A DNA stretch of 18,098 nt from Spirochaetia bacterium (GCA_041686235.1 JAWLED010000059.1:1-18098), one strand, 5' to 3'. Shown: positions 2,425 through 18,098, numbered from the stretch's first letter. Program-made: numbers and translations. Notes: generated by a model not told the origin, from the letters alone.

Positions 2425-2444
2425 CGTGCAATTGTTATAACTCC

Positions 2445-2474: not shown

Positions 2475-2493
2475 TCTGCGTAAGAGGTAAGGC

Positions 2494-3027
2494 ATGACCG
2501 AGACAAAGGAGAAACGACGGCCTGAAATGCCGAAGGCCGACTTCGTTACTTCACTGGTGTTGCTTGCATTCAGTGTTGCAGTCGTTCTGTTATCCACGAG
2601 ACTACCGCGACTCGAGCATCGAGACATAAACCAATGGACGATACCGGGGCTGGTTCCGGGGCTCATCGGGACCATAATCGGGATAATGGCCATCGTGCTC
2701 CTGTTGCGCTCTCTCAGATACGGAGGGCATCACCTCGGATTGACACGACGGCGCCTACGCTCGTTTACCGAGATGACGCAGGTACGGCGGGCGGGGGCAA
2801 CCCTGGTAATCTCTCTCTTTTATGCGCTGGTGCTCATCGGTCTCGTGCCCTATGCGGTGGGGACGTTTTTGTTCGTGTTTCTCTTCATTCTTCTTTTCAC
2901 CTATGAAAGAAGTGTCCCGATACGTGAACAGCGCAAAAAGGTACTGGTGGCTGCAGTGGAAGCGGTGATCGTTTCGGCGGCCGTTGCTTCACTATTTCAG
3001 TACGTATTTCTGGTACGCTTGCCATAA
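2494..3027 (+). CDS. tctB: Tripartite tricarboxylate transporter small membrane subunit TctB
   Basis: 177 aa, four hydrophobic helices, AGAGG RBS. It sits between tctC and tctA, the canonical position of tctB. Confidence 0.7.
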   Translation: MTETKEKRRPEMPKADFVTSLVLLAFSVAVVLLSTRLPRLEHRDINQWTIPGLVPGLIGTIIGIMAIVLLLRSLRYGGHHLGLTRRRLRSFTEMTQVRRAGATLVISLFYALVLIGLVPYAVGTFLFVFLFILLFTYERSVPIREQRKKVLVAAVEAVIVSAAVASLFQYVFLVRLP

Positions 3028-3041
3028 AGGAAGTATAGAGT

Positions 3042-4604: not shown

Positions 4605-4615
4605 GGAGCATGGAA

Positions 4616-5797: not shown

Positions 5798-6702
5798 CAA
5801 GCTCGAATCTGTCTGCGCTGAAACGCTATTCAACCCCGGCCGTTGCGCCGGTGCTCTGGGGCGGCGCGCTCGTAGCCGGACGCGTCGTCTCAGCCGACCT
5901 TCCACCTATCACGATCACATGGGTACGGTTCGTGCTCGTGGGCCTACTCTTAGTACCAGTATTGTGGATACGCGAAGGACGGTTCCCGCGACCTCGGCGA
6001 ACGGATCTTGTGGCGCTCGTGCTTCTCAGCCTCACGGGCGTGGTCGTATTCAATCTGCTTTTGTTCTCTGGACTACAAACGGTAACTGCGGTGAGAAGTT
6101 CCGTTATCATTGCGCTCGGCCCGTCGGTCGTGGCGTTGTTATTGGTGGTGTTTTTTCACGAACGGGCGGAACGGAATACGGTTTTCGGCATTGCGGTGGC
6201 CTTTGCCGGAGCGGTGGTTACGATTACCAATGGCCGGCCGACTCACATATTGGCCGGTGGTATTTCGGTGGGAGATGCCTATCTCCTCGGGTGTGTGTTC
6301 TCATGGGCGATATACACGATCATCGCCCGCTACGCGATTCGCAACCTCTCATCTCTGTCGGTACTTACCTATTCCTCGATACTCGGTGCCGCAATGCTGA
6401 CTCCGGTTGCCGTGCGCGCTGATATCGCGGCGGAAGTTGCCGGGGCTACGCCACAGGCGTGGGTGGCGCTTGCGTATCTCGTGTTTGGAGCGGCAGGGTT
6501 TGCCTATCTCATGTATTATGAGGGTATCCGCCTGGTAGGCCCAAATCGGGCAGCAGTCTTCTTGAATTTAGAGCCGGTTTCTGCTATCTTTTTAGGCGTC
6601 GTGTTGCTGGGAGAGGCCCTGACGCCGCCGGTACTCATTGGTGCGGCATTGGTTATTTTGGGACTCTACCTGGTCAACCGACGGAAAGCGGCGAGTTCGT
6701 AA
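5794..6702 (+). CDS. EamA/DMT-superfamily permease (10-TM drug/metabolite transporter)
   Basis: A GTG start overlaps the oxidoreductase stop (GTGA, 4-nt overlap). The protein is 302 aa with two EamA-like 5-TM halves. The exact start is uncertain. Confidence 0.65.
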   Translation: MTSSNLSALKRYSTPAVAPVLWGGALVAGRVVSADLPPITITWVRFVLVGLLLVPVLWIREGRFPRPRRTDLVALVLLSLTGVVVFNLLLFSGLQTVTAVRSSVIIALGPSVVALLLVVFFHERAERNTVFGIAVAFAGAVVTITNGRPTHILAGGISVGDAYLLGCVFSWAIYTIIARYAIRNLSSLSVLTYSSILGAAMLTPVAVRADIAAEVAGATPQAWVALAYLVFGAAGFAYLMYYEGIRLVGPNRAAVFLNLEPVSAIFLGVVLLGEALTPPVLIGAALVILGLYLVNRRKAASS

Positions 6703-6734
6703 AGCAGCTGGACGACTGTCTATGTCCAGCTCTT

Positions 6735-6792
6735 AAAAAAGGGCGGGCGCGGCCCCACCGTAGCAGATAGAGCGGCGCGCCCGTCTCTCGTT
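6735..6792. terminator. Candidate bidirectional intrinsic terminator between the convergent EamA gene (+) and the sORF (-)
   Basis: An all-G/C 8-bp stem, cgggcgcg (6744-6751) with cgcgcccg (6776-6783). On the minus-strand RNA it is followed by ccc + UUUUUU (plus-strand A-run 6735-6740). On the plus strand it is followed by a U-rich tctctcgtt. The loop is long (24 nt), so confidence is modest. Confidence 0.35.
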
Positions 6793-6845
6793 ACCTGTTG
6801 GCGACCGTCACTCGAGGCGTGTTGAGCACGGTCACCGGCCCGCTG

Positions 6846-6974
6846 TTACATTTCCTGTTCTTGCTCGAGTTCCTGACCCTCTTCAGGGAGCTCACTCTCG
6901 TCGATGGGCTCACAACCCATAAGAGCAACACCAAACAACAGCGGAACAATAAGAAACAACGCTAGCTTTTTCAT
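6846..6974 (-). CDS. Unannotated small lipoprotein (42 aa): signal peptide + lipobox + 22-aa highly acidic mature peptide
   Basis: My reverse-complement translation gives MKKLALFLIVPLLFGVALMGCEPIDESELPEEGQELEQEQEM, ending at a TAA stop. A strong SD (GGGAGGAGG, plus 6981-6989) sits 6 nt before the ATG. The n-region (MKK), hydrophobic h-region and L-M-G-C lipobox fit PROSITE-type lipoprotein rules. It is below the 61-aa cutoff of the ORF track. Confidence 0.55.
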   Translation of the reverse strand: MKKLALFLIVPLLFGVALMGCEPIDESELPEEGQELEQEQEM

Positions 6975-7196
6975 AACGGTCCTCCTCCCGTTTAGTTGAT
7001 ATCTTTAATCTAACCGACGCGTGCAAAGGGCGTGTCCACGTATCATGAAGTGTTTGTGAAGCTCGCTGTGCTCGTGGACGACGGTTTCCGGCCCTCCCCA
7101 CACGCCCCGGGCCGGTGTCTCCCGGCGTGACGGCACCTTCTTTTAACAGCTCGTTGATATTGCTTAACGTTTCGCCGACAGAATCTTAACAATCCC

Positions 7197-7226
7197 TTGA
7201 CAAACCCGGTCTTGTGGCCTCATTTT
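7197..7226 (+). promoter_or_regulatory. Putative sigma70-type promoter for the aminopeptidase gene (perfect -35 TTGACA, weak -10 cATttT after 18 nt)
   Basis: TTGACA is at 7197-7202 and CATTTT at 7221-7226. The ATG at 7248 lies ~15-20 nt downstream of the predicted TSS. The TTG that the ORF track used as a start is this -35 box. Confidence 0.25.
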
Positions 7227-7247
7227 AGAAACCGGCAGGGTGTTGGA

Positions 7248-8333
7248 ATGAGACCCTATAGGTCGAGCGTTACAGTAATTCTCGCTGCATTGATCCTCGC
7301 GGGTGCGTTTTATGCACTCGACGGGGGGTATTTGGTTCGGCAAGGCATCGGCTACTTCCACACGGTCATACTTGCCCGCGACTTCGACACACTTCGTGCT
7401 CAAGAAGATCTTGATAAACCTACCGAGCACCTCTTAGAACGCGTTGAAGAAATCCGCAGGTTTGCGCACGAAGAGCTCGGACTGAGAAAAACCGAAAACT
7501 TCACACGATACAGCGAGGTTAATCGAGACTATTTGGTTACCGTGGTTTCGGTTGTGCGGGACGACCGAATGCAACGCGGGACGTGGAATTATCCCGTCGT
7601 TGGTGAGCTTTTCTATCGAGGTTACTACAATAGCTCTCAGGCACAGCGGGTAGCGGCGCGCCTCGAAGCACAGAATTACGACGTGCTCATCCGCGAGGTC
7701 GACGCCTTCAGCAGCCTCGGGTACTTCCCTGATCCGGTCTACAGTTTCATGTCCGACTATAGCGACTACCGTTTGGCAAACCTCATCATCCATGAGGAAA
7801 TGCACTCCACCCTCTGGCTCGAGGGGCAAAATGCGTTCAATGAAGAGATCGCGACGTTCGTCGGCGACGAGGGTGCTGCAGAGTTCGTACGGCAGAAGCA
7901 TGGGGTAGAATCTCCGGAGTATCAATCGATTGCCAAGGGGAGCGCGGATCGAAAAACATACCGGCGACTCATGACCGAGTTGCATGAGAAGTTATCCGCG
8001 GCCTACCAACGGCTCGAAACGCGAGCGGAGCGCCTCGAAGCCAAAGAACGAATCTTCGAAGAGTTCCAAGATAGGATCGCCGCCAATTACGACACCCTGT
8101 TTCGCACCGACCGCTATCGCGGTATCACCAACCTTCCGCCCGACAATGCCCGCGTAGACGCAAGCTATAAGTATGGCGGTGACCTCTCGTTGTACTACGA
8201 GCTCTATGAGGAAGTTGATCGCGACCTCAGTGAAGTCATCGATATGCTGCGTAACAGCGGAGCACGCCCCGACGCCCCGCGCGATGCCCTCAGATCGCTC
8301 CTCGAAGAGGATTCCTCGGTCGGCGACACGTAA
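7248..8333 (+). CDS. Putative zinc-dependent aminopeptidase (DUF2265/'predicted aminopeptidase'-like), N-terminal signal/anchor, HEXXH motif
   Basis: The internal ATG at 7248 begins MRPYRSSVTVILAALILAGAFYAL, a hydrophobic signal peptide or anchor. A HEXXH zinc motif, IIHEEMHSTLW, is present. The overall length is ~360 aa. The family assignment is from memory, not a search. Confidence 0.55.
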   Translation: MRPYRSSVTVILAALILAGAFYALDGGYLVRQGIGYFHTVILARDFDTLRAQEDLDKPTEHLLERVEEIRRFAHEELGLRKTENFTRYSEVNRDYLVTVVSVVRDDRMQRGTWNYPVVGELFYRGYYNSSQAQRVAARLEAQNYDVLIREVDAFSSLGYFPDPVYSFMSDYSDYRLANLIIHEEMHSTLWLEGQNAFNEEIATFVGDEGAAEFVRQKHGVESPEYQSIAKGSADRKTYRRLMTELHEKLSAAYQRLETRAERLEAKERIFEEFQDRIAANYDTLFRTDRYRGITNLPPDNARVDASYKYGGDLSLYYELYEEVDRDLSEVIDMLRNSGARPDAPRDALRSLLEEDSSVGDT

Positions 8334-8377
8334 CACTCGCTGCGATACGCGACGTCACTATCCGAGCAGCTACCGTC

Positions 8378-10246
8378 TTACGCGAGCGATTCGAGCTCTT
8401 CCCACCACTGGTAGGCGTCGGAAATCTCGCGCTCGAGCTCGTCAAGCCGCTCGGTAAGCTCCCGCACCGTCGAGCCGTCGGCCTCCGTGTCGCGGTAGAG
8501 GGCAGGGTCGGAGAGTTTGCGATGAATCTGCTCCTGTTCGGCCTCCAACTCTGCGATTCGGTCCGGCAGTAGCTCGAGCTCGCGACGCTCTTTGAATCCG
8601 AGTTTGCGCGGTTGCTCGGCGCGTCGCTGTCGGTTTGTTTTGCCGCTTGTTTTGCTGCCGGCCTTCTCGCTCGTGGACTCTCGGCGGCCGGCGTGCTGTC
8701 GGCGCTCACGCTCACGTTCGCGCCAATCGGTGTATCCGCCGGAGTATTCGACGACCTGAGCATCTCCGCTCAGTACGAGGCACTCCGTAACCACGTTATC
8801 GAGAAACTCACGGTCGTGGCTCACGAGAATGATCGTCCCATCGTAGTCGATCAGAAGCTGCTCGAGCAGCTCGAGTGTTTCGGTGTCGAGGTCGTTGGTC
8901 GGCTCATCGAGGACCAAAACGTTCGACGGGCGCGCAAAGAGCTTTGCCAGCAGTAACCGGTTGGTCTCTCCGCCGGAAATGCCCTTCGCAGGCTTTTTCA
9001 TATCTTCTTCACTGAAGAGAAACTCTTTGAGATATCCGGCAAGATGACGCTCGCGGCCGGCGTAGCGTACCCGATCGTAGCCGCCGCCGACGTTCTCGTA
9101 GATCGATGCCTCGGGATCGATACGTGCCCGCATTTGGTCGAAGTAGACGACCTCGAGCCCGGTGCCGTGCCGGACCGTCCCTGCATCCGGCGACAATTCT
9201 TTGAGCAGTAGGCGAACGAGGGTGGTCTTGCCGCTGCCGTTTGGGCCCACGATACCCACGCGGTCGCCGCGCTCGATCATGGTCGAAAGCCCCGATATGA
9301 TCGACGTTTCCCCGTAGCCGAAGCTGAGCTCTTCGGTCTCGATCACCATATCACCCGAGCGCTCTGCGTTCTCGATCGACATCCGTGCGGTTTCCGGACG
9401 CTCCCGCCGCTGTCGATGCTCCTCGCGCATCTGCTCTAAGCGCCGCACGCGGCCCTCATTGCGGGTCTGACGGGCCTTTATGCCTTTGCGAATCCAGGCT
9501 TCCTCTGCGGCAAGTTTCTCATCGAATTTGCGTCGCTCCTCCTCTTCCTGTTCGAGTTGCTGTTGGCGCCGGCGGACGAACTCGTCGTAGCCGGCATCAA
9601 AACTGTAGAGCTTACCGCGGTCGAGCTCGGCGACTCGAGTGGTTAGCCGTCGTGCCAGGGCGCGGTCGTGGGTAACCAACAACAAGGCGCGCTTCTCGAC
9701 GTTCGACAATCGGAGGAGATAGTCTTCGAGCCATAGGACGGTGTCGATGTCGAGGTGGTTCGTCGGCTCGTCGAGAAGGACCGCATCCGCTCCGGCGGCA
9801 AGGGTGCGGGCGAGCAGTACCCGACGCAGCACTCCGCCGGATGCCGTTGAGAGCTCCGTGTCCGCCCCGACCCCGAGGCGGGTGAGAAACTGCTCGGCTT
9901 CGAGACGTCTGTGAGCGAGCGTCTCGTGGTCTTCGTCCGGACCGGCGTCGAGCGCGGCGTCGATCGCCGATCCGCTCCATCCGTGGGGAATCTGCTGATC
10001 GAGGTACGCAAGCCGTGCCCCCGCCTGAACGCTCACCCGGCCCTCGTCGGGAGTCAGTTTCCCGGCCGCAATTCGCAGGAGGGTGGATTTGCCCGCGCCG
10101 TTTCTGCCCACCAGACTGATCCGCTCACCAGGCTGCACGTGCAGCGAGACGTGGTCGAGAACAGGGTCCCCGCCGAAGTTGTAGTACACATCGTGAAAGC
10201 CAAGAAGCGCCACGGCCGCACGGTAGCACAACCGGCGCCGCCGCAT
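8378..10246 (-). CDS. uup: ABC-F family twin-ATPase (Uup-like) with C-terminal basic/coiled-coil domain
   Basis: There are two complete ABC cassettes (Walker A GRNGAGKST and GPNGSGKTT; signature LSGG-like motifs; Walker B LLDEPTNHLD and LVLDEPTNDLD). A charged inter-domain linker is rich in E/R/K. The C-terminal Arg/Lys-rich segment plus coiled coil is typical of Uup. There are no TM segments. The exact start is uncertain (ATG 10246 or GTG 10213). Confidence 0.85.
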   Translation of the reverse strand: MRRRRLCYRAAVALLGFHDVYYNFGGDPVLDHVSLHVQPGERISLVGRNGAGKSTLLRIAAGKLTPDEGRVSVQAGARLAYLDQQIPHGWSGSAIDAALDAGPDEDHETLAHRRLEAEQFLTRLGVGADTELSTASGGVLRRVLLARTLAAGADAVLLDEPTNHLDIDTVLWLEDYLLRLSNVEKRALLLVTHDRALARRLTTRVAELDRGKLYSFDAGYDEFVRRRQQQLEQEEEERRKFDEKLAAEEAWIRKGIKARQTRNEGRVRRLEQMREEHRQRRERPETARMSIENAERSGDMVIETEELSFGYGETSIISGLSTMIERGDRVGIVGPNGSGKTTLVRLLLKELSPDAGTVRHGTGLEVVYFDQMRARIDPEASIYENVGGGYDRVRYAGRERHLAGYLKEFLFSEEDMKKPAKGISGGETNRLLLAKLFARPSNVLVLDEPTNDLDTETLELLEQLLIDYDGTIILVSHDREFLDNVVTECLVLSGDAQVVEYSGGYTDWRERERERRQHAGRRESTSEKAGSKTSGKTNRQRRAEQPRKLGFKERRELELLPDRIAELEAEQEQIHRKLSDPALYRDTEADGSTVRELTERLDELEREISDAYQWWEELESLA

Positions 10247-10285
10247 CTACGCACCATCGTATACGCACCGCCATTAATATGCCTC

Positions 10286-10313
10286 GTGACGAGATCCGGC
10301 AGAGTACGGTATA
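10286..10313 (+). promoter_or_regulatory. Putative promoter for the small OMP gene: -35 GTGACG, 16-nt spacer, perfect -10 TATAAT (10308-10313)
   Basis: The TATAAT hexamer lies 37 nt upstream of the ATG at 10350. The alternative ATG at 10314 sits inside this element and is therefore unlikely to be the start. Confidence 0.35.
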
Positions 10314-10349
10314 ATGTGTAGAGACGACACGGAGGCGTTACGGAGCCTA

Positions 10350-11072
10350 ATGAAGCTCACAAAGATATCAATAATCGCCCCGGTTCTCGGGGTTTTTCTT
10401 CTGCTCTCGGCTGTCCAGACACCGGCACAGACCTCGTACGTCGGGGTCAAAGGCGGGATTTTCGCCGGCTTCTACGGAGGCGAGGACTGGAAAGATACGA
10501 TTTCCGAGATCGACGGCCAAACCGGTGTTAGTGCCGAGAACGCCTTTAGAGCGGGGTTTGCACTGTCAGGCCTCGTGGAAATCGGGGTGAGCCGTACGTT
10601 CTCGATCCAACCGGAAATCGGATACGCGCGGCGAAGCGGCGGAGTGGTGACGGAAGAAGACGACAGCGACAATGAGCAGCAAAGCCTCTTCATGTACGAT
10701 CTCATTGAGATTCCCCTATTCTTGAAACCCCACGGGAGAATAGGAGATCACCTGACTCTCTACGGTTTGTTAGGTCCTAGGGTGAGTTTTCTTTTTGGGG
10801 ACGTGACCGCCAGAGGTAGGGAAGAAACCGACAACGACACGACGACCACGACTTCTGAAAGAACACCGGATAATACGGTCTTATTTGGTGGCTCCGTGGG
10901 CGCGGGGCTCGCCGGCGATGTCAACGGCGCGCGCATTCTGTTCGAAGCGCTATACTCACGGCACTTCAACTCCGCTTTTGAAGAAGTGGACCTCTTAGGT
11001 CAAAACGAGACAACGAAACGACCGATCCTCAACAGCATCGGCCTGTGGCTCGGAGTAGACTTCCCCATCTAG
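10350..11072 (+). CDS. Small outer-membrane beta-barrel protein (OmpA-N/OmpW-like 8-strand barrel family), secreted
   Basis: The signal peptide is MKLTKISIIAPVLGVFLLLSAVQTPAQT. Alternating hydrophobic/aromatic beta-strand patterns are present (YVGVKGG, FALSGLVEIGV, FSIQPEIGYA, LFGGSVGAGLA, ILFEALYSR), with a low-complexity D/T-rich surface loop. GGAGG/ACGGAG boxes lie upstream. Confidence 0.6.
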   Translation: MKLTKISIIAPVLGVFLLLSAVQTPAQTSYVGVKGGIFAGFYGGEDWKDTISEIDGQTGVSAENAFRAGFALSGLVEIGVSRTFSIQPEIGYARRSGGVVTEEDDSDNEQQSLFMYDLIEIPLFLKPHGRIGDHLTLYGLLGPRVSFLFGDVTARGREETDNDTTTTTSERTPDNTVLFGGSVGAGLAGDVNGARILFEALYSRHFNSAFEEVDLLGQNETTKRPILNSIGLWLGVDFPI

Positions 11073-12256
11073 AACGAGTAGGTAAATCCGGTGCTCAGCG
11101 TGGCCGCTCCCGAGCGCTCCCACGCGAAAACGTTCGTGTTGTCTCCGCTCTGCACGCCGGCAAACGCCACCAATTCAAATCCGCCGAATACATTCCAACT
11201 CACCCCGGTGCTCATGTAAGCCGAGAGATCGATCGGTGACACAATCGAGCGCAGCACAACGGATACCGTACGCCCGGGGCTCAGAACGAGCTCCGGGTAT
11301 AGGGTGAGCCCGTACTCGCCCTGGGGGTCATTCTTGTCCTCCCACGCGCCCCCCGGGCGGATGAGCGCCTCGAGTCGAGCGTCGAGGTCTACCTCGCGGC
11401 CGAGAGTGAAGCGGTTGTAGGCTCCGAGGCTGAAGGTCGCTCGTTCGTCCACCGCATCTCCGTCGGCATCGCCCCCGATATCGCCGTCTATCGAGAGCCG
11501 CCCCGCGCCGTAGACGTCCACGCCTATGAGCCCGACGACGGTGAGGACCGTTTCGTGGCGCCCGCTTGTGCCGTCATACAGGTAGGCCGGCTCGAGCGTG
11601 AAATTCCCGAGCTCGAAGCTCAGACGCCCACCCGCTCGGCTACTGCTGAGCTCAGAGGGCTCATCCCCGGAGCCGGTCGACGGGCTTCCCTCGGTCGGGA
11701 GGTCGGGGAGGATAATGGGCTCGAAGTATGAGAACGAGCCGAGCGGAACATACACCGCGCTCAACCACGTGGTTTCATTACGCAGGTCGTCCGATATCTC
11801 GAAAAAGTCGGCCGCGCCGGTTCCGTCCGCGCCAAAAATGACGTCGGCGGCGTTGAACAGACGCCCCATACCCCACGAAACGCGGTCGCGCCCGGAGGTC
11901 ACACGCACCGTGTAGTCCTCGGTCAGCGGAAACCGGAAGCGTATAGAGGCACGGGGGACGGTTACCGTGGCCGCTTGCTCGGTATCCCCGGTGTTCGAGC
12001 CGGTGGTCTCGCCAAGAACGGCATCGAGTGTGAGGCGAGCCTGAACGTTGCGGTCACGCTCGGAGCGGAGGTCGAGTTCCCCGCGGCCATAGCCGAGCAA
12101 TCCGAGCTCGTCCTTGGCGCCGTTCCATGCGAGGGTGTTTAGCGTCTCGATTTCCCCGTCGATCCGCGCCTGGGCGGCAAGCGGGAGCGGGGCGATGGTA
12201 CACAAAACCGCCACTATCGCGCACCACAGAGCCGGTCCGCCGCGTGCGCCTACCAT
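11069..12256 (-). CDS. Outer-membrane beta-barrel protein (395 aa), last gene of the minus-strand operon
   Basis: GGAGG is 7 nt before the ATG. The signal peptide ends at AAQA. The sequence is dominated by alternating hydrophobic strands with G/D-rich turns and ends with the OMP C-terminal signature ...STGFTYSF (terminal Phe). The start overlaps the upstream LolA_like gene by 7 nt. Confidence 0.6.
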   Translation of the reverse strand: MVGARGGPALWCAIVAVLCTIAPLPLAAQARIDGEIETLNTLAWNGAKDELGLLGYGRGELDLRSERDRNVQARLTLDAVLGETTGSNTGDTEQAATVTVPRASIRFRFPLTEDYTVRVTSGRDRVSWGMGRLFNAADVIFGADGTGAADFFEISDDLRNETTWLSAVYVPLGSFSYFEPIILPDLPTEGSPSTGSGDEPSELSSSRAGGRLSFELGNFTLEPAYLYDGTSGRHETVLTVVGLIGVDVYGAGRLSIDGDIGGDADGDAVDERATFSLGAYNRFTLGREVDLDARLEALIRPGGAWEDKNDPQGEYGLTLYPELVLSPGRTVSVVLRSIVSPIDLSAYMSTGVSWNVFGGFELVAFAGVQSGDNTNVFAWERSGAATLSTGFTYSF

Positions 12257-13116
12257 GAGAGCTCCTCCAGCGAAAAAATATTCGAGGGAAGATCAACCCC
12301 GATTTCCACACTTTCGAGGATCATGTCCGTGCTGCTCGACCTGCGGGTCGTGTCGTCGATGCGCAGGTGTATCGGGAAGTGGTAGCCGTTCCGACGTGTG
12401 GTCTCGAGGACGCTGATCTCTTTCAACTGCCGTCCGCTGCGCGCGTACTGCTCGCTTTTGAGGAGCACGAAGTCCTCGGCATCGACATAATAGACTTGCC
12501 GTGGATACGCTACATTGGTGCCGCGCGCCTCGAGCTCGATCTTATACGCGTTGCGCCCCTGGATTTGTTCTTCACCTTGGAGATTCACCCGATAATCATC
12601 GAGTAGCCCCCGCCCCCCGGTCATATCTTCGTAGGAGAGATCCGATCCCAGAAGCGAGTCACGCAACGCCGAGCCCTGCAACCGGATTACTTCCCGCGCA
12701 TCGGGGTAATAGAGATACAGATTATCGTCGCGGCGAAGGATCCGCTGGCCGTCTTCGTCGCGCGAGGTAAACTCTACGAGAAATCGATCTTCGCCTTCGC
12801 TGTGCATGATAAACGTGCTTGTGCGCTCACCGAAGCGGTCGTTTATCACCATGCGCCCCTCGACAATGCTCGTGGGGTGTGTTTGGTTCTCCTCCATCCG
12901 CTCGATAATATCTTCGCCCGTCATCTCCTCGGCGGGCAGACTGAGCGGTGCGAGGAGCACGAAAGCGGCAAGGGCGGGGAGGGCGGCCACCATTCGCCGC
13001 CGAGTGCCGGCCGTGCGGCGGGCGGCTCGGCGCTCGCCGGCACGGTGGTCGCCCGTGCGGCGGGCGGCGGCCCGCATTACGCAGATTCGTGTTCTCATAC
13101 GTGAAACTTTTCTCAT
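12250..13116 (-). CDS. LolA_like 'outer-membrane lipoprotein-sorting protein' family protein (distant LolA/LppX fold), exported
   Basis: AAGGAG is 7 nt before the ATG at 13116, immediately after the permease stop. The hydrophobic export segment is MVAALPALAAFVLLAPLSLPA. The mature part carries the SDLSYEDM motif (GSDF/LSYEDM is the family hallmark) and the typical ~230-aa core. It starts with an unusual Arg-rich 41-aa N-terminal extension, so the alternative start is M42 at 12993. Confidence 0.6.
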   Translation of the reverse strand: MRKVSRMRTRICVMRAAARRTGDHRAGERRAARRTAGTRRRMVAALPALAAFVLLAPLSLPAEEMTGEDIIERMEENQTHPTSIVEGRMVINDRFGERTSTFIMHSEGEDRFLVEFTSRDEDGQRILRRDDNLYLYYPDAREVIRLQGSALRDSLLGSDLSYEDMTGGRGLLDDYRVNLQGEEQIQGRNAYKIELEARGTNVAYPRQVYYVDAEDFVLLKSEQYARSGRQLKEISVLETTRRNGYHFPIHLRIDDTTRRSSSTDMILESVEIGVDLPSNIFSLEELSW

Positions 13117-13134
13117 ATTCAGTCTCCTTCCCGG

Positions 13135-14361
13135 TTAGTCGCGGAGCGCCTCCACCGGCTTCAACTTCGCCGCCCGTCGGGCGGGGAAAAATGAGGCAAA
13201 CATCGCAATCGCCGACGAGTAGACGAACACCACCACTGTCGAGCGCAGATTCAACACCGGATACAGTACCGTCGACATCTCCATGTTTGCCTGTTCCATT
13301 GCCTGGCCGAAATCGATGCCGAGGCGTTGCAACGGCAGCGTAGCACCGATGCCGAGCACCACTCCCAACAGAGAGCCGGCAAGGCCGAGATAGGCGGCCT
13401 CGATGAAGAACAGGCGAACGAGCTCGCGGTCGTGCATTCCCATTGCCGTGAGGGTACCGATCTCACGGGTGCGCTCGTGAATCGTCATCATCGTGGTGTT
13501 GATCACCACGGTGCTTCCGAGCAAAAAGAAGATGAGCGCGATGATGTTGTAGACGGCGTCCGCCATTTGAAGATACGCGTAGCCGCCGCTGACCTCTGTC
13601 CACGGGGTAACGCTCATCCCCTCGATACCGCTTTCGGAAAGCGCTGATCGAACCGCGGCCTCGACCGCGCTCAGCTCGCCGGTGTCACTTTTCACGAGCA
13701 CCTCGGTTGCCGCATCGCCCATACGCGCGTAACGCGACGCGGTGTCAATCGGAAGTATAAAGGTGTTGTCGTTCAACCCGGCCATGGGAAACACGGCAAG
13801 GCCCACCACGTCGACGCTGAAACCGTTCGACCTTCGGTTTCGCGTGCGGGTAAGGAAGGTGGCCATATCTCCGATTCCGACATCCAGCTCCTCGGCAAGC
13901 CCGGTTCCGAGGATTGCCTCCCTCGTTCCCGGCTGGGGAAGTCTCCCCTCGGCAACAATTGTATCGAGCTCTTGATACCTCTGCTCGAGCTGGAGATCGA
14001 GTCCTATTCCGTTGGCTGCGATATGCTGCTCGCCGCGAAAGGCCGCACCGGCAATCTTGATCCGGGGGCTCACCGCCGAGACGGCCGAGCGCTCTGAGAG
14101 GCGATCGACGAGGCGCTCGTAGTCGGGAACCACGTAATGAACCGGGTTGAGGTGCTCGTATCGATCAAAATCGGCATTGCGAATACGGATCTCTCCGGTC
14201 TCGTAGTTCCAGGCGTTATGGCGAACGTCAACCTTGATACCTTCGAAAATCGAGAAGAGCATGGTGATGGCGAACGCGGCGATTGCGATGGCGATTATCG
14301 AAAGGAGGCTTCGCCTTCCGTTTCGGAACACGTTACGGAGTGCTATGGACGCGATCTTCAT
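13135..14361 (-). CDS. FtsX-family ABC permease with large periplasmic domain (MacB/LolC/LolE type), copy 2
   Basis: The start is taken at M61 of the ORF-track translation (ATG 14361; GGGAG SD; 10 nt after the upstream stop). Topology is TM1, then a ~230-aa periplasmic domain, then 3 C-terminal TMs, i.e. the MacB/Lol architecture. The longer ORF-track start would overlap the upstream gene. Confidence 0.8.
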   Translation of the reverse strand: MKIASIALRNVFRNGRRSLLSIIAIAIAAFAITMLFSIFEGIKVDVRHNAWNYETGEIRIRNADFDRYEHLNPVHYVVPDYERLVDRLSERSAVSAVSPRIKIAGAAFRGEQHIAANGIGLDLQLEQRYQELDTIVAEGRLPQPGTREAILGTGLAEELDVGIGDMATFLTRTRNRRSNGFSVDVVGLAVFPMAGLNDNTFILPIDTASRYARMGDAATEVLVKSDTGELSAVEAAVRSALSESGIEGMSVTPWTEVSGGYAYLQMADAVYNIIALIFFLLGSTVVINTTMMTIHERTREIGTLTAMGMHDRELVRLFFIEAAYLGLAGSLLGVVLGIGATLPLQRLGIDFGQAMEQANMEMSTVLYPVLNLRSTVVVFVYSSAIAMFASFFPARRAAKLKPVEALRD

Positions 14362-14371
14362 TTGCTCTCCC

Positions 14372-15628
14372 TCATGCGTGGCGCAGCGAATCGGTGATGC
14401 TGCGACGAAGAATACGCCGGGTCGGCACAATCGCGACGACGCCGGCGAGGACAACGGCAAATGCCGCGCTCGCAACCATTGTCGGAACGTTCCACACGCC
14501 GTAGAGGACCCCATCGAAGCGGAAGTCCATCTCGGCTCCATCCATCAAAACGCCGTAATCGAGGCCGTAGCTTACCGACAGCCACACCAGCACCGACCCG
14601 AGGGCCACCCCACCGATCGCCCCGATGAGGCCGATTCCGGCCGCCTCGTAGGCGAACATCGAGCGGATCTCCCCGTTTCGAAAGCCCATTGCTCGCATCA
14701 TGCCGATCTCGTTCTCGCGCTCGAGCACCGACATCAGCATGGTATTGGAGATACCCACCACGGCGATGAGCCCGAGGAGCAGAAGGATTATGGCATTCGA
14801 GGCGTTCTCCATCTCCATGATCTCCGCGAACTCTTCGTTGAGACGCTCGAAGCTCAGAAACTCGACGTGATCGAAATCCGAGAGTACCTCCCGCACCGGC
14901 TCGGTATCGGCCTCGCTTGGAAGTGTTCCGGGAAGCGACATGTGGATGGAGGTCACCGCACCGCGCATTTCGAGATATTCGTCGGCTACCCCGATGGGGA
15001 GAAAGGCCTGGTAGCGGTTGAGAATGGGATTCGACGTGTTGAAAATGCCGACGATTTCGAGATCCATGATTTGGTGAAACCCGTCTCGCGTACGGGTCGT
15101 CACTGAGATGGGATAGCCGATCTCCGCGCCAAGCCGCTCGGCAAGCCAGCGACCGATCACCACCTCTTCTTGCCCGGCGTGCGGAAAGCGGCCCTCGACG
15201 ATTGCCTCGGAAAGCCCAAACACTTCGGGGTCACGCTCCACATCGATTCCGTAGAAGGTGCGTTGTATCGAGCCGTCTTCGGGGAACGGGTCATAGCGTA
15301 CGATGAGCTCCCCGCGAAACGCCACACGCGGCGCCGCGGGGATTCCTTCTCGCTCCAGTGCTTCGAGGATCTCTTGCGGGGTTTCAATGACGCGGTCGAG
15401 TGGCAGCGTCTCGCGCTCGTCCCAGTAGCCCGGCGCCGTTGCTGCCGCGTCGCCGGTCTCGTAGCGAGAGACATTTCGGTTATTCTCGGCGGCAAACCCT
15501 TCGAGGAGCGAGCTCATCGCCACGAATATCGCCACGCCGAACGCGATTGCGCTCGCGGTGATGAGCGTCCGGCGCTTGTGTCGCGCGAGGTTTTTCGCGG
15601 CGAGGGCGATGAGAAATCCGCGCGGCAT
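14372..15628 (-). CDS. FtsX-family ABC permease with large periplasmic domain (MacB/LolC/LolE type), copy 1
   Basis: The start is taken at M41 (ATG 15628; GAGGGGAG SD; 35 nt after the ATPase stop). It has the same architecture as the downstream paralogue, so the two probably form a heterodimer as LolC/LolE do. Confidence 0.8.
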   Translation of the reverse strand: MPRGFLIALAAKNLARHKRRTLITASAIAFGVAIFVAMSSLLEGFAAENNRNVSRYETGDAAATAPGYWDERETLPLDRVIETPQEILEALEREGIPAAPRVAFRGELIVRYDPFPEDGSIQRTFYGIDVERDPEVFGLSEAIVEGRFPHAGQEEVVIGRWLAERLGAEIGYPISVTTRTRDGFHQIMDLEIVGIFNTSNPILNRYQAFLPIGVADEYLEMRGAVTSIHMSLPGTLPSEADTEPVREVLSDFDHVEFLSFERLNEEFAEIMEMENASNAIILLLLGLIAVVGISNTMLMSVLERENEIGMMRAMGFRNGEIRSMFAYEAAGIGLIGAIGGVALGSVLVWLSVSYGLDYGVLMDGAEMDFRFDGVLYGVWNVPTMVASAAFAVVLAGVVAIVPTRRILRRSITDSLRHA

Positions 15629-15662
15629 TCGCTCCCCTCGTGTACGTCGGCCACCCAGCATC

Positions 15663-16346
15663 TCATGCGCTCCTTCGCTCATCACTCTCGATGAGCCCGT
15701 CGTGCAGCCGGCAAAGGCGGGCGGCGTAGTCCATGACCATGTGGTCATGGGTCGAGAACACGAAGGTGGTACCGCGGCGGCGGTTCACGTCCTTCATGAG
15801 CTCGAGGATGGCCTCGCCGGTCTCCGAATCCAGGTTCGCCGTGGGCTCGTCGGCAAGCACGATCAATGGGTCCTTTATGAGTGCGCGGGCCACCGCGACG
15901 CGCTGCTGTTGCCCCCCGGACAGTCGCGAGGGGCGGCGGTGCTCCATTCCCTCGAGGCCGACCTCGGCGAGCAACCCCATCGTCCGCTCTTGCGTTTCCT
16001 CCTGCGACACGCCGAGCAGCGAAAGAGACATGGATACGTTTTCGTAGGCGGTCAGCACCGGGATGAGGTTGAAGTTCTGAAATACGAATCCGATCTTTTG
16101 CCGGCGCATCTCGGTGAGCTCGCGCTTGCTTCGACCGGCCACGCGCTCCCCGTCGATGTCGATGTCGCCGGCGTCGGCGGTGTCGATGCAGCCGATTATG
16201 TTCAAGAGCGTTGTCTTGCCGGAGCCCGACGGCCCGGCGATCGAGAGAAACTCACCGCTGTCGATGTCCATGGAAACACCCCGCAGGGCGTGCACCCGGG
16301 TCTCCCCGTCGATGTAGTCCTTGTGGACCTCATGCACCGTAATCAT
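15663..16346 (-). CDS. ABC transporter ATP-binding protein, LolD/MacB-NBD type
   Basis: Walker A GPSGSGKTT, Q-loop, signature LSGGQQQRVAVARAL, Walker B LIVLADEPTANLD and H-loop STHD are all present. AAGGAAG is 7 nt before the ATG. The start overlaps the stop of the SPFH gene (ATGA). Confidence 0.9.
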   Translation of the reverse strand: MITVHEVHKDYIDGETRVHALRGVSMDIDSGEFLSIAGPSGSGKTTLLNIIGCIDTADAGDIDIDGERVAGRSKRELTEMRRQKIGFVFQNFNLIPVLTAYENVSMSLSLLGVSQEETQERTMGLLAEVGLEGMEHRRPSRLSGGQQQRVAVARALIKDPLIVLADEPTANLDSETGEAILELMKDVNRRRGTTFVFSTHDHMVMDYAARLCRLHDGLIESDERRSA

Positions 16347-17461
16347 GTGGTATCTTCCTTTTCCTCGTTTTCGTGTTCCTGCTCGCCGCGCCGCAAGGCC
16401 GCCATGCCGAGACTGGTACCGAGATTCATCGAATCCAGCGCGGAGCTCGGAACGAGCATCATGTTCTCGTTCTGCTTCATCCCGTCATAGATCATATTCA
16501 TGGCCCGCAGCTGGAAGGCCGTCGGGTTCTCTTCGTAGCGCCGCCCGGCCTCCTCGAATTTTTCCGCGATTTCTACTTCCGCGGAGCTGAGAATAACGCG
16601 CGACTGTCGCTCGCGCTGGGCTTGGGCTTTGCGGCTCAACGCGTCCTCGAGCTCTTGGGGGAGAAGCACCTCCTTGAACTCAATCGAGATGATGGTAATG
16701 CCCCATGGGCTGGTTTTGCGGTCGAGCGTCTCCTGTATTTCCCCGCCGAGACGCTCCCTCTCGCTCAGCACCTCCGACAAGTCGCTGTGCCCGATGGTGT
16801 CGCGCAACGCCGACTGCGCCGAAAGCGTCACCGCCTCCGCATACTTCTCGACCTCGAGAATCGCCTTCTCGGCGTCCCAGACCATCCAAAAGGCGAGGGC
16901 GTCTACATGCACGGGCACCGTGTCCCGTGTTACCGAGCGCTCGGCGGAGAAGTCGGTCACGCGTATGCGCATGTCGACCCGGTCGATCACCGTATCGAGG
17001 ATGGGTAAAACCACGTGTGGTCCCGGGGAGAGGGTCCGGTGAAATCGCCCCAAACGCAGCACCAGCACGCGCTCCCAATGCCGCACGACCTGAACGGTCG
17101 GGGCGAGCAGGAGCCCGGCGCTGACCACGCCGAGTGCCGCCGCCGTCGTGCCTGCCGTTGTGCCGGGGAGGATCGGCCCCACACCGGCCCACATAGCCAC
17201 GATGACCGCGAGCACGACCGGCCACAGCGGCAATACGGCAATAACAGCCGCCCCTCCGATCACAACGAGCGCGAGGGTCACGACGGCTTGTTGGCTGGGC
17301 ACGGTGCCGACGGCAAGTTGGAGGGCCATGCCGGCCCCGAGGAATACAACGACCGTCAATGCGGAGAGCGTACTAAAGGTAAAGTGCGACGGTCGCCGAA
17401 GCGTGCGACGCGCAGACGAGCGCCGGCTCAGCTCGTTTCGAATCTGTTCGGTGGTCTTCAT
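16343..17461 (-). CDS. SPFH/band-7 (stomatin/prohibitin-like) membrane protein with an extended polytopic N-terminal region and acidic C-tail
   Basis: GGAGG is 7 nt before the ATG. The SPFH core (VRHWERVLVLRLGRF...PGPHVVLPILD...VDMRIRV...) is preceded by ~125 aa containing about four hydrophobic helices; canonical stomatins have one hairpin. The start overlaps the gntR stop (ATGA). Confidence 0.8.
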   Translation of the reverse strand: MKTTEQIRNELSRRSSARRTLRRPSHFTFSTLSALTVVVFLGAGMALQLAVGTVPSQQAVVTLALVVIGGAAVIAVLPLWPVVLAVIVAMWAGVGPILPGTTAGTTAAALGVVSAGLLLAPTVQVVRHWERVLVLRLGRFHRTLSPGPHVVLPILDTVIDRVDMRIRVTDFSAERSVTRDTVPVHVDALAFWMVWDAEKAILEVEKYAEAVTLSAQSALRDTIGHSDLSEVLSERERLGGEIQETLDRKTSPWGITIISIEFKEVLLPQELEDALSRKAQAQRERQSRVILSSAEVEIAEKFEEAGRRYEENPTAFQLRAMNMIYDGMKQNENMMLVPSSALDSMNLGTSLGMAALRRGEQEHENEEKEDTT

Positions 17462-17859
17462 TCGTCCCCCTCCTCGTGGTACGCGCTCAAAAACGCGACG
17501 ATCTCGCCGACACTGAAGCCGTACGAAGCGGCCTGACTGACAAACCCCCGTACCAGCTGTGAAAGAATCTGGTTGCGATCCACCTCCGAGAGCGCAACTT
17601 CCTTGTCGCTGATGAAGGTGCCGGTCCCGTGTTGCGTGCTTACCAACCCGCGAATCTCGAGCTCGTTGTAGGCGCGGGCAACGGTATTCGGGTTTACCTG
17701 CAGGTCGACCGCAAGGCCGCGAACCGTGGGCAGCTGAAACCCGGGTTTCAGCCGTCCGTCCGCAACCGCCATCTCGATCTGGAGAATGATCTGGCGATAA
17801 TAGGGGATGCCGCTTCCGGGATCGAGCAGGATGTCGATCGACCTTTTTTCTTTTGCCAC
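17458..17859 (-). CDS. GntR-family transcriptional regulator, YtrA subfamily (winged HTH + short C-terminal dimerisation helices)
   Basis: The 133-aa product starts at GTG, with a GAGGG SD 5 nt upstream. The GntR HTH signature is LPTVRGLAVDLQVNPNTVARAYNELEIRGLV. The C-terminal ~50 aa are typical of the YtrA subfamily, which classically controls adjacent ABC exporters. Confidence 0.8.
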   Translation of the reverse strand: MAKEKRSIDILLDPGSGIPYYRQIILQIEMAVADGRLKPGFQLPTVRGLAVDLQVNPNTVARAYNELEIRGLVSTQHGTGTFISDKEVALSEVDRNQILSQLVRGFVSQAASYGFSVGEIVAFLSAYHEEGDE

Positions 17860-17876
17860 GTTACCCTCGTTGCTGA

Positions 17877-17889
17877 GCAGTAAGTTGTA
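17877..17889. promoter_or_regulatory. Candidate GntR-type operator: inverted repeat AGTA-N5-TACT (GT..AC core) in the leader of the gntR operon
   Basis: agtaagttgtact is palindromic at its flanks (agta/tact). It lies between the predicted TSS and the RBS, where an autoregulatory YtrA-type repressor would be expected to bind. Confidence 0.2.
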
Positions 17890-17910
17890 CTATTGAACTA
17901 ATACACTGAT

Positions 17911-17939
17911 ATTTTGGTACACAAAAGCTCGGAAGTCAA
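17911..17939 (-). promoter_or_regulatory. Putative promoter of the gntR-SPFH-ABC operon (minus strand): -35 TTGACT, 17-nt spacer, -10 CAAAAT
   Basis: On the reverse complement, TTGACT (plus 17934-17939) is followed by a 17-nt spacer and CAAAAT (plus 17911-17916). The region is AT-richer than its flanks. The predicted TSS is ~45 nt upstream of the GTG start. Confidence 0.3.
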
Positions 17940-18061
17940 CAAGAAATTTCGGACTCATCAAACTTGAAAAACGCAATAGTGCCGGCGGGATTGTGATTTC
18001 TCTTGACCTTAGAGCGCGCTCCAAGCCGTACATTCTACAACTGCCGACCGGAGGTACGTGC

Positions 18062-18098
18062 GTGCGTGAACGTGGGCTGTGTCCCCTCCAAAACCCTG
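18062..18098 (+). CDS. Possible 5' end of a divergently transcribed gene running off the window (GTG start after GGAGG)
   Basis: GGAGG at 18050-18054 is followed 7 nt later by GTG. The frame stays open to the window end, which is only 12 codons, so this is very weak. Confidence 0.12.
   Translation, partial: MRERGLCPLQNP

Follow-up and report, generated by a model that had tools for sequence, protein, structure and literature searches.

Several described systems bring together a soluble protein of the LolA superfamily, a large outer-membrane (OM) barrel and an inner-membrane pump: AmeABCD of Castellaniella defragrans and the DUF1302/DUF1329 clusters of Pseudomonas, which also contain BNR and RND genes. 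AmeABCD includes a DUF1302 outer-membrane protein, a DUF1329 protein of the LolA superfamily and an HAE3 RND pump; it is inducibly expressed and has a tolerance and efflux phenotype for hydrophobic compounds, its deletion lowering monoterpene tolerance and raising Nile Red accumulation (PMC6394551). AlphaFold-Multimer predicts a DUF1302-DUF1329 complex (ipTM 0.84), and the model of DUF1302 is an 18-strand barrel whose fold comes closest to AlgE and OccAB (PMC13499233). Cofitness with RND genes has been observed for DUF1302/DUF1329 genes on Tween 20 and fatty esters, and the defect of P. putida DUF1302/DUF1329 mutants on fatty esters was interpreted by the authors as catabolic. According to a source that cites them, Price et al. 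proposed that the DUF1302/DUF1329/RND genes export a cell-envelope component. For the Borrelia burgdorferi lp38 cluster BBJ23-BBJ29, which includes genes for a dedicated OM barrel, a LolA-like protein and a MacB-like ABC transporter, a computational study proposed delivery of a non-polar ligand to the OM (PMC13078400).

Here we analyse an operon that recalls these systems, located in an 18,098-nt stretch of DNA (hereafter the window) from a Spirochaetia bacterium (GCA_041686235.1 JAWLED010000059.1:1-18098). Its seven open reading frames (ORFs) lie on the minus strand in the order gntR, SPFH, ATPase, permease 1, permease 2, LolA_like and barrel. The ORF positions agree with the original prediction of seven minus-strand genes, Pfam returned the domains that it had named, and its testable elements were all upheld. 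In the direction of transcription, the features are as follows.

17911..17939, minus strand: candidate sigma-70-like promoter, TTGACT-17 nt-CAAAAT
17886..17905, minus strand: candidate GntR operator, an imperfect palindrome (TGTATTA-GTTCAA-TAGTACA) that closely follows the -10 box
17458..17859, minus strand: gntR, YtrA-type GntR-family repressor of 133 aa (Pfam GntR)
16343..17461, minus strand: SPFH gene, polytopic stomatin/slipin-type protein of 372 aa (Band_7)
15663..16346, minus strand: ABC ATPase of the MacB/LolD/DevA/FtsE (type VII) clade (ABC_tran)
14372..15661, minus strand: permease 1, 429 aa from ATG 15661, MacB_PCD plus four-transmembrane (4-TM) FtsX; alternative start at 15628
13135..14361, minus strand: permease 2, 408 aa, a second, different MacB_PCD plus FtsX permease
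12250..13116, minus strand: LolA_like carrier, a predicted secreted periplasmic protein without a lipobox (PF17131 / TP_0789-like)
11069..12256, minus strand: barrel gene, 18-stranded outer-membrane beta-barrel of 395 aa from an unnamed family

ATGA overlaps join gntR to the SPFH gene (17458-17461) and the SPFH gene to the ATPase gene (16343-16346), and a 7-nt ATGGTAG overlap joins the carrier and barrel genes (12250-12256); all three had been predicted and can be read in the sequence. Predicted gaps of 10-35 nt with Shine-Dalgarno boxes were found between permease 1 and permease 2 (10 nt, with GGGAGAG) and between permease 2 and the carrier gene (18 nt, with AAGGAG), whereas the gap between ATPase and permease 1 depends on the start chosen and is 1 nt (ATG 15661, AAGGAG 8 nt upstream) or 34 nt (ATG 15628). 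Translational coupling across the operon is plausible from these junctions, as had been supposed; the fixed stoichiometry claimed alongside it is not derivable from sequence.

The same gene order is repeated in ~50 independent spirochaete loci, with unrelated flanks among those whose neighbours were listed, and the arrangement is therefore far beyond chance. Almost every spirochaete locus with sufficient sequence contains a core of ATPase, two permeases, LolA_like carrier and barrel. Permease 1 precedes permease 2 in nearly all full-core loci, and a Sphaerochaeta/Pleomorphochaeta-like variant has an additional permease 1-type copy before the ATPase. The invariant unit is LolA_like plus barrel: the two genes adjoin in every locus with complete upstream sequence, usually through the conserved 7-nt overlap (at least 18 loci; a 4-nt overlap in five), at protein identities down to ~30%, and in one genome the pair occurs without an adjacent ABC transporter (locus L038), a point against the exporter reading proposed below. 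Ahead of the core stands either a GntR regulator with SPFH or a TetR regulator without it. Several paralogous copies occur within genomes, for example in Marispirochaeta JC231 (L026 and L030) and in the MAG B1Sed10_113R1 (three loci), which argues for substrate-specialised pumps rather than a single essential machine. Conservation of the barrel family extends to many free-living Spirochaetia. No locus from Treponema, Borrelia, Leptospira or Brachyspira was among the 46 found with two peptide patterns, which is weak evidence of absence because only these two patterns were used in the scan. Co-occurrence of SPFH, LolA_like and barrel with MacB-like ABC genes, which the original prediction had put forward for checking, extends across many genomes; as the domains are also confirmed, the objections that the genes adjoin in one genome alone or belong to unrelated families do not apply. 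The operon is real and is widely conserved in spirochaetes.

In regulators of the YtrA subfamily, very little sequence (~50 aa) follows the GntR winged-helix domain; they head ABC-transporter operons and have a palindromic operator. The first gene of the operon, with a GTG start and a GAGGG Shine-Dalgarno box, fits this description in size, ABC operon context and conserved palindrome: its product matches Pfam GntR over residues 21-83 (2.5e-16), and, since ~50 aa alone follow the winged helix, it lacks a ligand-binding domain. Its top NCBIfam matches, both under the equivalog cut-offs, are Rv1152 and PmtR, each of which regulates an ABC exporter. Apart from the candidate promoter, the minus strand of 10200-18098 (7.9 kb) has no promoter-like match, and in related loci TTGACA occupies the corresponding position with respect to the operator. 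The palindrome TGTAYTA-N6-TARTACA occurs once in the window, against 0 expected from 200 shuffles. Across loci, 23 of the 32 that contain gntR have GTAYTA-N4-7-TARTAC directly ahead of this gene, with just four other occurrences in ~800 kb and none in TetR-type loci. The palindrome before gntR is thus likely to be the operator, and conservation supports both it and the single promoter candidate. Local repressors of two families, YtrA-GntR or TetR, heading one and the same core are typical of inducible efflux loci.

According to the synteny tables, the SPFH gene lies directly downstream of gntR wherever upstream sequence exists and is absent from TetR-type loci; it is outside the conserved core and accompanies the GntR regulator. 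Its product contains a Band_7 domain (PF01145; 1.8e-34, 119.8 bits) preceded by four hydrophobic segments in the hydropathy profile, and the positive-inside rule suggests that the SPFH domain is probably cytoplasmic. With Band_7 behind a membrane anchor and stomatins as the closest relatives, the protein belongs with the stomatins and slipins: matches to PDB sequences are led by PH1511 stomatin (1.5e-37) and human stomatin (~3e-35), followed by QmcA (5e-25) and HflC/K (1e-8 to 1e-11), and a cluster member almost identical to the window protein carries the NCBI name 'slipin family protein'. By these matches and the NCBIfam scores (HflK 75.5 bits against a cut-off of 159.4, HflC 45.1 against 134.4), the protein is not of the HflK/C type with which it had at first been compared; the operon also contains no second SPFH gene and lacks ftsH. 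The closest stomatins form 16- to 26-mer cages, judged by PDB chain counts; stomatin/QmcA-type proteins have one anchor or hairpin, unlike the window protein with its four segments. Our literature search turned up no stomatin-like gene with an obligatory link to a YtrA-type regulator or a MacB-type ABC transporter.

The ATPase (ABC_tran, 5.6e-34) matches the DevA (221 bits), LolD (215.3) and FtsE (209) families of NCBIfam, in each case under the curated cut-off. PF12704 and PF02687 are above gathering scores in both permease 1 (MacB_PCD 2.5e-13, FtsX 2.7e-18) and permease 2 (MacB_PCD 8.5e-15, FtsX 6.8e-20), and by hydropathy each has a single TM at the N-terminus, then a domain of ~220 aa in the periplasm and three TMs at the C-terminus; the claim of two distinct FtsX permeases with large periplasmic domains is thereby borne out. 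Domains, TM layout and the adjacent ATPase place the transporter in the MacB (type VII) ABC superfamily. Among solved structures, permease 1 is closest to E. coli LolE (3.9e-16), then YtrF, LolC, LolF and MacB, and permease 2 to LolE (4.8e-19), LolF (1e-15), YtrF (1e-13) and MacB. LolE and LolF handle lipoproteins, which counts against reading the operon as an efflux system. Canonical LolCDE was rejected on TIGR02212 (lolCE), where the permeases reach 91.7 and 133.5 bits against a cut-off of 362.45, and canonical LolD on TIGR02211 (215.3 against 307.75). Neither an HlyD-family adaptor nor a TolC-family duct is encoded by any window ORF or by the conserved operon of related loci, and a tripartite pump of the MacAB-TolC type was rejected because both are missing.

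The LolA_like protein matches PF17131 at 1.4e-47 (162 bits against a cut-off of 30), with secondary Pfam matches to MucB_RseB (5e-7) and, weakly, DUF1329 (5e-3); its PDB relatives are 4z48, 9tp6, 3bk5 and 3buu. Together with a secretion signal, this assigns it to the PF17131 LolA_like / TP_0789-like proteins, and its kinship with a carrier family, proposed at the outset, is confirmed. The signal peptide lacks a lipobox, homologues have ordinary signal peptides with no conserved Cys, and the carrier is accordingly predicted to be secreted, not lipid-anchored. It gives no match to the canonical LolA Pfam family at E<=0.01, and the window encodes no LolB-like gene, just as it had been said to lack both LolB and an adaptor; the canonical LolCDE-LolA-LolB pathway was rejected on these two grounds.

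The seventh ORF is an 18-stranded outer-membrane barrel; the fold upholds the call made for this unannotated gene, which has no Pfam or NCBIfam match. Its nearest folds are AlgE/Occ-like, with nutrient channels as the nearest structural neighbours, and the family has so far been found in spirochaetes only. The 18 strands, these folds and the adjoining gene for a LolA-superfamily partner are DUF1302-like traits. PF06980 matched none of 29 barrel-family members even at E<=10, and Wzi matched two of the 29 weakly (best E 0.007). In hhalign the family aligned with a betaproteobacterial barrel family (probability 75%, E 2.5e-5, 152 columns including a shared loop motif), some members of which match PF06980 (the query itself at E 1.7e-4), and with a bona fide Prevotella DUF1302 at E 0.043. 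These alignments are suggestive of a distant relationship with DUF1302. The Omp85 / BamA-TamA class, 16-stranded and usually with POTRA domains, as in Borrelia BBJ25, does not accommodate the window barrel.

We propose, with a probability of about 55%, that the operon encodes a 'shuttle' exporter which spans the envelope, is controlled by a repressor and moves a hydrophobic or amphiphilic molecule. We favour inducible efflux of, or tolerance to, small compounds of this kind (terpenoid-, detergent-, fatty- or lipopeptide-like) over housekeeping lipoprotein sorting. The YtrA-type GntR would bind the palindrome at its own promoter and keep transcription of all seven genes low, with repression lifted by a signal from the envelope or the substrate. 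The ATPase dimer and the heterodimer of the two permeases would form a type VII ABC transporter that works by mechanotransmission, as in LolCDE and MacB, drawing substrate out of the inner membrane's outer leaflet or the periplasm and passing it to the soluble LolA_like protein, by analogy with LolC, which hands lipoproteins to LolA. The loaded carrier may then dock on the dedicated 18-stranded barrel and release its substrate into or across the OM. The carrier-barrel pairing is obligatory by synteny, and a soluble carrier with a porin-like barrel suggests a shuttle rather than a continuous tunnel. SPFH would be accessory, most likely an oligomeric scaffold on the cytoplasmic face of the inner membrane; speculatively, it might organise the pump or relay the membrane state to the effector-less repressor. 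Outward transport is suggested by family: to our knowledge, every type VII ABC transporter characterised so far works in export or extraction. No biosynthetic or cargo genes are linked to the operon.

Other cargoes were weighed against this proposal. A second, specialised Lol-type pathway, in which certain lipoproteins are extracted by the LolCE-like heterodimer and ferried by LolA_like, and the barrel replaces LolB or flips them to the surface, would account for LolE and LolF as top solved relatives of both permeases, for lolCE and LolD among the top NCBIfam matches and for a carrier within the LolA superfamily. We consider it doubtful: the scores are far under the equivalog cut-offs (92 and 134 against 362 for LolCE, 215 against 308 for LolD), the carrier is PF17131 and not canonical LolA, and the operons are multi-copy and repressor-controlled. 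An equivalent PF17131 carrier with an 18-strand DUF1302-type barrel serves MMPL/RND pumps, and the carrier-barrel pairing also occurs in Betaproteobacteria, which have a full LolABCDE system. The Borrelia plasmid cluster lends this reading no sequence similarity either, as tblastn against plasmids gave no match at E up to 1e-3 for the window carrier or at E up to 1e-2 for its barrel.

Supply of an endogenous, spirochaete-specific OM lipid or glycolipid, a biogenesis role like that of DevBCA-HgdD or Lpt/Mla, is unlikely. DevA gives the top ATPase score (221 bits), a hydrophobic cavity is expected in the carrier because it is a LolA superfamily member, the barrel family is kept in many free-living Spirochaetia, and the export proposal of Price et al., as relayed by the citing source, points the same way. 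Yet none of the loci inspected has linked genes for lipid or glycolipid biosynthesis, local repressors and multiple paralogues per genome suit inducible pumps better, and the lack of Treponema, Borrelia, Leptospira and Brachyspira among the 46 loci, a weak point given the two-pattern scan, also tells against it. A route inward, with the barrel as a substrate-specific channel like OccD, ChiP or LamB and LolA_like carrying a hydrophobic nutrient, seems very improbable even though the barrel's nearest structural neighbours are nutrient channels and the P. putida mutant defect was read as catabolic. We know of no importers among MacB_PCD/FtsX type VII ABC transporters; no substrate-binding protein or catabolic genes are linked to the operon; and the AmeABCD phenotype is a loss of tolerance and efflux (PMC6394551).

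The export shuttle that we favour shares parts with several known systems. With YtrA (B. subtilis), PmtR (S. aureus) and Rv1152 (M. tuberculosis) it has in common a short GntR without an effector domain heading an ABC operon, and the window palindrome is likewise of the GT...AC form. LolCDE-LolA-LolB also combines an ATPase and two non-identical MacB_PCD/FtsX permeases (LolE matching best) with a soluble LolA-superfamily carrier, but the window proteins score under all Lol equivalog cut-offs, the carrier is of a different Pfam family, and the operon has a barrel instead of LolB and is repressor-controlled and multi-copy. MacAB-TolC and DevBCA-HgdD share the type VII ABC inner-membrane engine, the window ATPase being closest to the DevA and LolD families, whereas the operon has neither an HlyD-type adaptor nor a TolC-type duct. 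Borrelia BBJ23-BBJ29 differs in its Omp85-type barrel, two TPR proteins and homodimeric permease, and in having no GntR or SPFH.

The original prediction implied an unprecedented design; this was overstated, since LolA-like proteins and DUF1302-type barrels are paired with RND or ABC pumps in other phyla. In Prevotella, MMPL, LolA_like and DUF1302 genes occur together, with LolA_like directly before DUF1302. The window carrier has the same PDB relatives (4Z48, 3BK5, 3BUU) that are cited in the AmeABCD/DUF1329 papers, and the window barrel, like the DUF1302 model, is 18-stranded and AlgE/Occ-like. The differences from AmeABCD lie in the pump (type VII ABC with two permeases against HAE3 RND), the carrier (PF17131 against DUF1329), the barrel (~200 aa shorter than AmeA, with no detectable PF06980), the regulator (YtrA-GntR, or TetR, plus SPFH against LuxR) and the lack of a BNR/Ycf48-like fourth protein. 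Membership of the AmeABCD-type HAE3 RND systems was rejected, as the window contains no RND/MMPL or BNR domain and the carrier-plus-barrel logic alone is shared. Betaproteobacteria, for example on Burkholderia thailandensis plasmid p1, have a cassette with the same four functional parts as the spirochaete operon: LolA_like, an ABC ATPase, a fused (MacB_PCD-FtsX)x2 permease and a 380-aa barrel. In that cassette, annotated 'hypothetical' and likewise uncharacterised, the carrier gene comes first, the permeases form one 830-aa chain, and GntR and SPFH are lacking. The operon is an ABC-driven, spirochaete-specific form of carrier-barrel systems that are already recognised and poorly studied.

The window is a complete 18,098-bp contig of a Spirochaetota MAG and carries seven consecutive minus-strand ORFs (11069–17859), encoding in order a GntR regulator, an SPFH protein, an ATPase, two permeases, a LolA_like carrier and a predicted outer-membrane barrel. 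Reading the sequence at the gntR/SPFH and SPFH/ATPase junctions revealed ATGA overlaps; 10 nt separate the two permease genes, 18 nt precede the LolA_like gene, and this gene overlaps the last one by 7 nt (ATGGTAG). These ORFs and junctions confirmed the seven-gene operon of the original prediction, the coordinates and description of which were accurate except for the start of permease 1, which is uncertain: the gap behind the ATPase gene is 1 nt for the ATG at 15661 (AAGGAG 8 nt upstream) and 34 nt for the ATG at 15628. Terminator-like matches in the scanned operon region were no more than expected from shuffling, hence none is proposed as the operon terminator, and no Rfam family reached its threshold anywhere in the window. 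The control sites and neighbouring genes are as follows.

17939–17911, minus strand: promoter candidate TTGACT-17-CAAAAT, the sole minus-strand promoter-like site in 7.9 kb
17905–17886, minus strand: candidate operator TGTATTAGTTCAATAGTACA; the degenerate pattern TGTAYTA-N6-TARTACA matches once, with 0 expected
10314–11072, plus strand: OMP_b-brl_2/TDE1717-like small outer-membrane barrel gene, converging on the operon and overlapping the stop codon of the predicted 18-strand barrel by 4 nt
8378–10246, minus strand: ABC-F protein

The OMP_b-brl_2 gene was excluded as a member of the system, as it does not lie beside the operon in other loci. The region at 321–10246 also encodes a xylose-isomerase-like TIM-barrel protein, a TctC-TctB-TctA tripartite tricarboxylate transporter, a GFO/IDH/MocA oxidoreductase, an EamA transporter and a PF10023 putative aminopeptidase.

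Pfam searches upheld six of the seven originally predicted domain assignments: GntR in the regulator (2.5e-16), Band_7 in the SPFH protein (1.8e-34), ABC_tran in the ATPase (5.6e-34), FtsX and MacB_PCD in each permease, and LolA_like PF17131 in the carrier (1.4e-47, with weaker MucB_RseB and DUF1329 matches). The ATPase is nearest to the DevA, LolD, DarD and FtsE families and the permeases to the lolCE family, all with scores far below the curated equivalog cut-offs. Among solved structures, E. coli LolE is closest to both permeases, followed by LolF, YtrF, LolC and MacB, and hydropathy analysis of the permeases gave the expected layout of TM1, a ~220-aa periplasmic domain and TM2–4. Among LolA_like homologues the signal peptides are ordinary and a lipobox is not conserved. 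Counted from the SD-preceded ATG, the window carrier has a 41-residue Arg-rich N-terminal extension (12994–13116, minus strand), with a Tat-like TRRRMV inside it, ahead of the hydrophobic signal core; because the n-regions of the homologues are short and ordinary, the internal Met at 12993 may be the true start.

The seventh ORF had no match in Pfam or NCBIfam, and 29 homologues of its product, run against HMMs, returned just two weak Wzi matches. The protein has a signal peptide and ends in ...TYSF, the last residue of the homologues is almost always F or Y, and structure modelling predicts a barrel fold. The most conserved motif, GRDRxSWGxGxLFNAxD (residues 122–138), sits in the model in a long loop between strands 5 and 6, which by barrel topology would be extracellular loop 3; loop 3 constricts many porins. 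A profile search placed 319 clusters at 50% identity in the family. All 46 genome loci recovered were from Spirochaetota (Spirochaetaceae, Marispirochaeta, Sphaerochaeta and Pleomorphochaeta, mostly MAGs), in a scan that was built on family alignment A1 and two peptide patterns and in which distant taxa may be under-represented.

Gene order was compared by phmmer analysis of 54 loci together with gene calls around homologues. SPFH, LolA_like and barrel genes recurred with MacB-like ABC genes across the loci, the five-gene core running from the ATPase to the barrel was found in nearly all loci with enough sequence, and the flanking genes were unrelated in loci whose neighbours were listed. Wherever the upstream sequence is complete, LolA_like adjoined the barrel; at one locus, L010, what lies ahead of the barrel is a weak partial LolA_like match. 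The same 7-nt carrier/barrel overlap occurs in at least 18 loci, including database gene calls at L001–L005, and a 4-nt overlap occurs in five. Together, these gene orders show an obligatory pairing of carrier and barrel, for which translational coupling is plausible. At L038:8183–10206, on a 2.3-Mb Spirochaetia chromosome, the LolA_like and barrel genes stand alone directly after a His_biosynth-family (hisF/hisA-type) gene, with no ABC or RND pump in the 8 kb upstream. At L054:13644–15409 a frameshift breaks the LolA_like ORF, the 3′ part of which runs on into a barrel ORF; phmmer with the window protein does not reach this barrel, which has diverged too far. The resulting 498-aa fusion call, from a long-read assembly, most likely reflects an artefact (frameshift or read-through) and was not counted as evidence.

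Upstream of the core, the GntR and SPFH genes of the window type were present in 23 distinct loci after duplicate contigs were dropped, and additionally in L045, which has an extra permease upstream of gntR. Seven loci (L035, L036, L037, L039, L042, L044 and L049) combine GntR and SPFH with a third FtsX permease, and five distinct loci (L004/L005, L011, L012, L013 and L048) are headed by a TetR regulator without SPFH. These arrangements show that the local repressors, GntR or TetR, are interchangeable before the core. In the eight-gene variant the third MacB_PCD and FtsX permease (for example, L037:3765–5024; 420 aa, nearest to permease 1) lies between the SPFH and ATPase genes, and its hosts are a Pleomorphochaeta sp. 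(L044) and several unclassified Spirochaetales/Spirochaetaceae MAGs. Some genomes hold two or three operon copies.

The window regulator has 133 aa, with only ~50 residues beyond the winged helix, and among named proteins it is nearest to two YtrA-type regulators, Rv1152 and PmtR. Upstream of gntR, related loci have in common a TGTACTA-N5-6-TAGTACA consensus inverted repeat, positioned between TTGACA and a −10-like box or overlying them. In ~800 kb of loci, GTAYTA-N4-7-TARTAC adjoined gntR in 23 of 32 cases, occurred elsewhere just four times and was absent from the TetR-type loci; several of the remaining nine gntR loci had near-matches. The pattern fits autorepression by GntR at this putative operator.

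The SPFH protein is of the stomatin type, matching PH1511 (1.5e-37), human stomatin (~3e-35) and QmcA (5e-25) in the PDB, and HflK/C only at 1e-8 to 1e-11. It has four N-terminal hydrophobic segments, and from the K/R counts around them (8 at the N-terminus, 5 in the stretch after the fourth segment) we infer that the SPFH domain is on the cytoplasmic side. Wherever upstream sequence exists, its gene is found only directly 3′ of a gntR gene, with none in the TetR-type loci. This strict association with an effector-less GntR suggests that a regulatory or sensing role is no less likely than scaffolding of the pump. A literature search returned no described SPFH/YtrA/FtsX link. That a stomatin-like gene so strictly accompanies one for an effector-less repressor provides a smaller second lead on bacterial SPFH function.

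Outside spirochaetes, relatives were sought by tblastn of the carrier against plasmids and annotation of the matching loci. Prevotella nigrescens has the order MMPL, LolA_like (PF17131, plus DUF1329 at 7e-17) and DUF1302, and Haliovirga has TetR, MMPL and LolA_like. Burkholderia thailandensis encodes LolA_like, an ATPase, a fused (MacB_PCD-FtsX)x2 protein and a 380-aa 'hypothetical' with a weak DUF1302 match (1.7e-4). On the Persicobacter psychrovividus megaplasmid pPP1 (Bacteroidota; L055:3045–8666), which has no gene annotation in the PLSDB table (incomplete by design), the order is TetR, an unannotated secreted 378-aa protein, ATPase, two permeases and LolA_like; this LolA_like protein shares 34% identity with the window carrier across 74% of its length. 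For the secreted 378-aa protein there was no Pfam match and no hhalign signal (E 0.27); it may be a barrel placed upstream. Because profile–profile comparison by hhalign linked the spirochaete barrels to the betaproteobacterial, Burkholderia-type 380-aa family (75% probability, E 2.5e-5) but gave a non-significant E of 0.043 with a single Prevotella DUF1302, we treat the barrel as probably a distant member of the DUF1302/Wzi/AlgE-like group, short of proof. Across these loci, carrier and barrel show up as an apparently portable output module: in Bacteroidota and Betaproteobacteria it serves ABC or RND/MMPL pumps, and in Fusobacteriota, where only the carrier was seen, an MMPL pump.

The envelope-spanning trafficking role put forward in the original prediction is supported as far as sequence analysis reaches. 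Judging from the families, the ABC complex would work by mechanotransmission, pulling a hydrophobic or amphiphilic substrate out of the inner membrane at its outer face and loading the soluble LolA_like carrier. The carrier would dock on the barrel, which would then let the substrate go, either into the outer membrane or across it. We favour an inducible efflux or tolerance role because two families of repressor are encoded locally, the operons occur in multiple copies, RND/MMPL pumps use an equivalent module (a PF17131 carrier and an 18-strand DUF1302-type barrel), and tolerance and efflux are the only phenotypes on record for a module of this kind. An uptake route is unlikely, given that the pump is a type VII ABC (the MacB/LolCDE class). 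That the operon is instead a Lol paralogue handling lipoproteins appears improbable to us, and that it handles an endogenous lipid is less probable again. Longer odds still attach to a LolB-independent route that would insert or surface-expose lipoproteins or outer-membrane glycolipids via LolA_like and the 18-strand barrel, with expression set by a polytopic stomatin-like cage reporting the inner-membrane state to, or sequestering, the effector-less YtrA-type repressor; such a sensor, of a new kind, would explain the presence of SPFH only alongside that regulator.

We know of no biochemically characterised type VII ABC system that reaches the outer membrane via a soluble LolA-like carrier and its own dedicated porin-like barrel, with no membrane-fusion adaptor or TolC. 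This ABC–carrier–barrel design is conserved in many free-living spirochaetes and offers a compact, widespread and testable unit that bears on the tunnel-free passage of hydrophobic molecules over the periplasm. Its study could help explain outer-membrane supply in spirochaetes; in Borrelia, no LolB was found (PMC13078400). The same 2026 computational paper proposed a MacB-like ABC/LolA-like/Omp85-barrel exporter on Borrelia lp38 (PMC13078400), whereas the window barrel is of another type. Kinship with this Borrelia BBJ cluster was rejected at the sequence level, as tblastn of carrier and barrel against the plasmid collection gave no Borrelia match.

DUF1302 (PF06980) proteins are described as 18-strand barrels with AlgE and OccAB as the nearest folds, and co-occur with DUF1329, the pair reaching an AlphaFold-Multimer ipTM of 0.84 (PMC13499233). 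On Tween 20 and fatty esters, the Pseudomonas DUF1302/DUF1329 genes are cofit with BNR and RND genes, and export of a component of the envelope has been proposed for them. In Castellaniella defragrans, monoterpenes induce AmeA (DUF1302), AmeB (DUF1329, LolA superfamily), AmeC and AmeD (an HAE3 RND pump), and Ame deletion mutants tolerate monoterpenes less well and accumulate more Nile Red (PMC6394551). A literature search returned no functional study of the spirochaete family and none of PF17131 function. The class that joins a LolA-superfamily carrier and a DUF1302-type barrel to a pump in the inner membrane is already recognised and mechanistically unstudied. The spirochaete operon is an ABC-driven, spirochaete-specific variant of this class and not categorically new; its new features are the unnamed barrel family and the GntR–SPFH control module.
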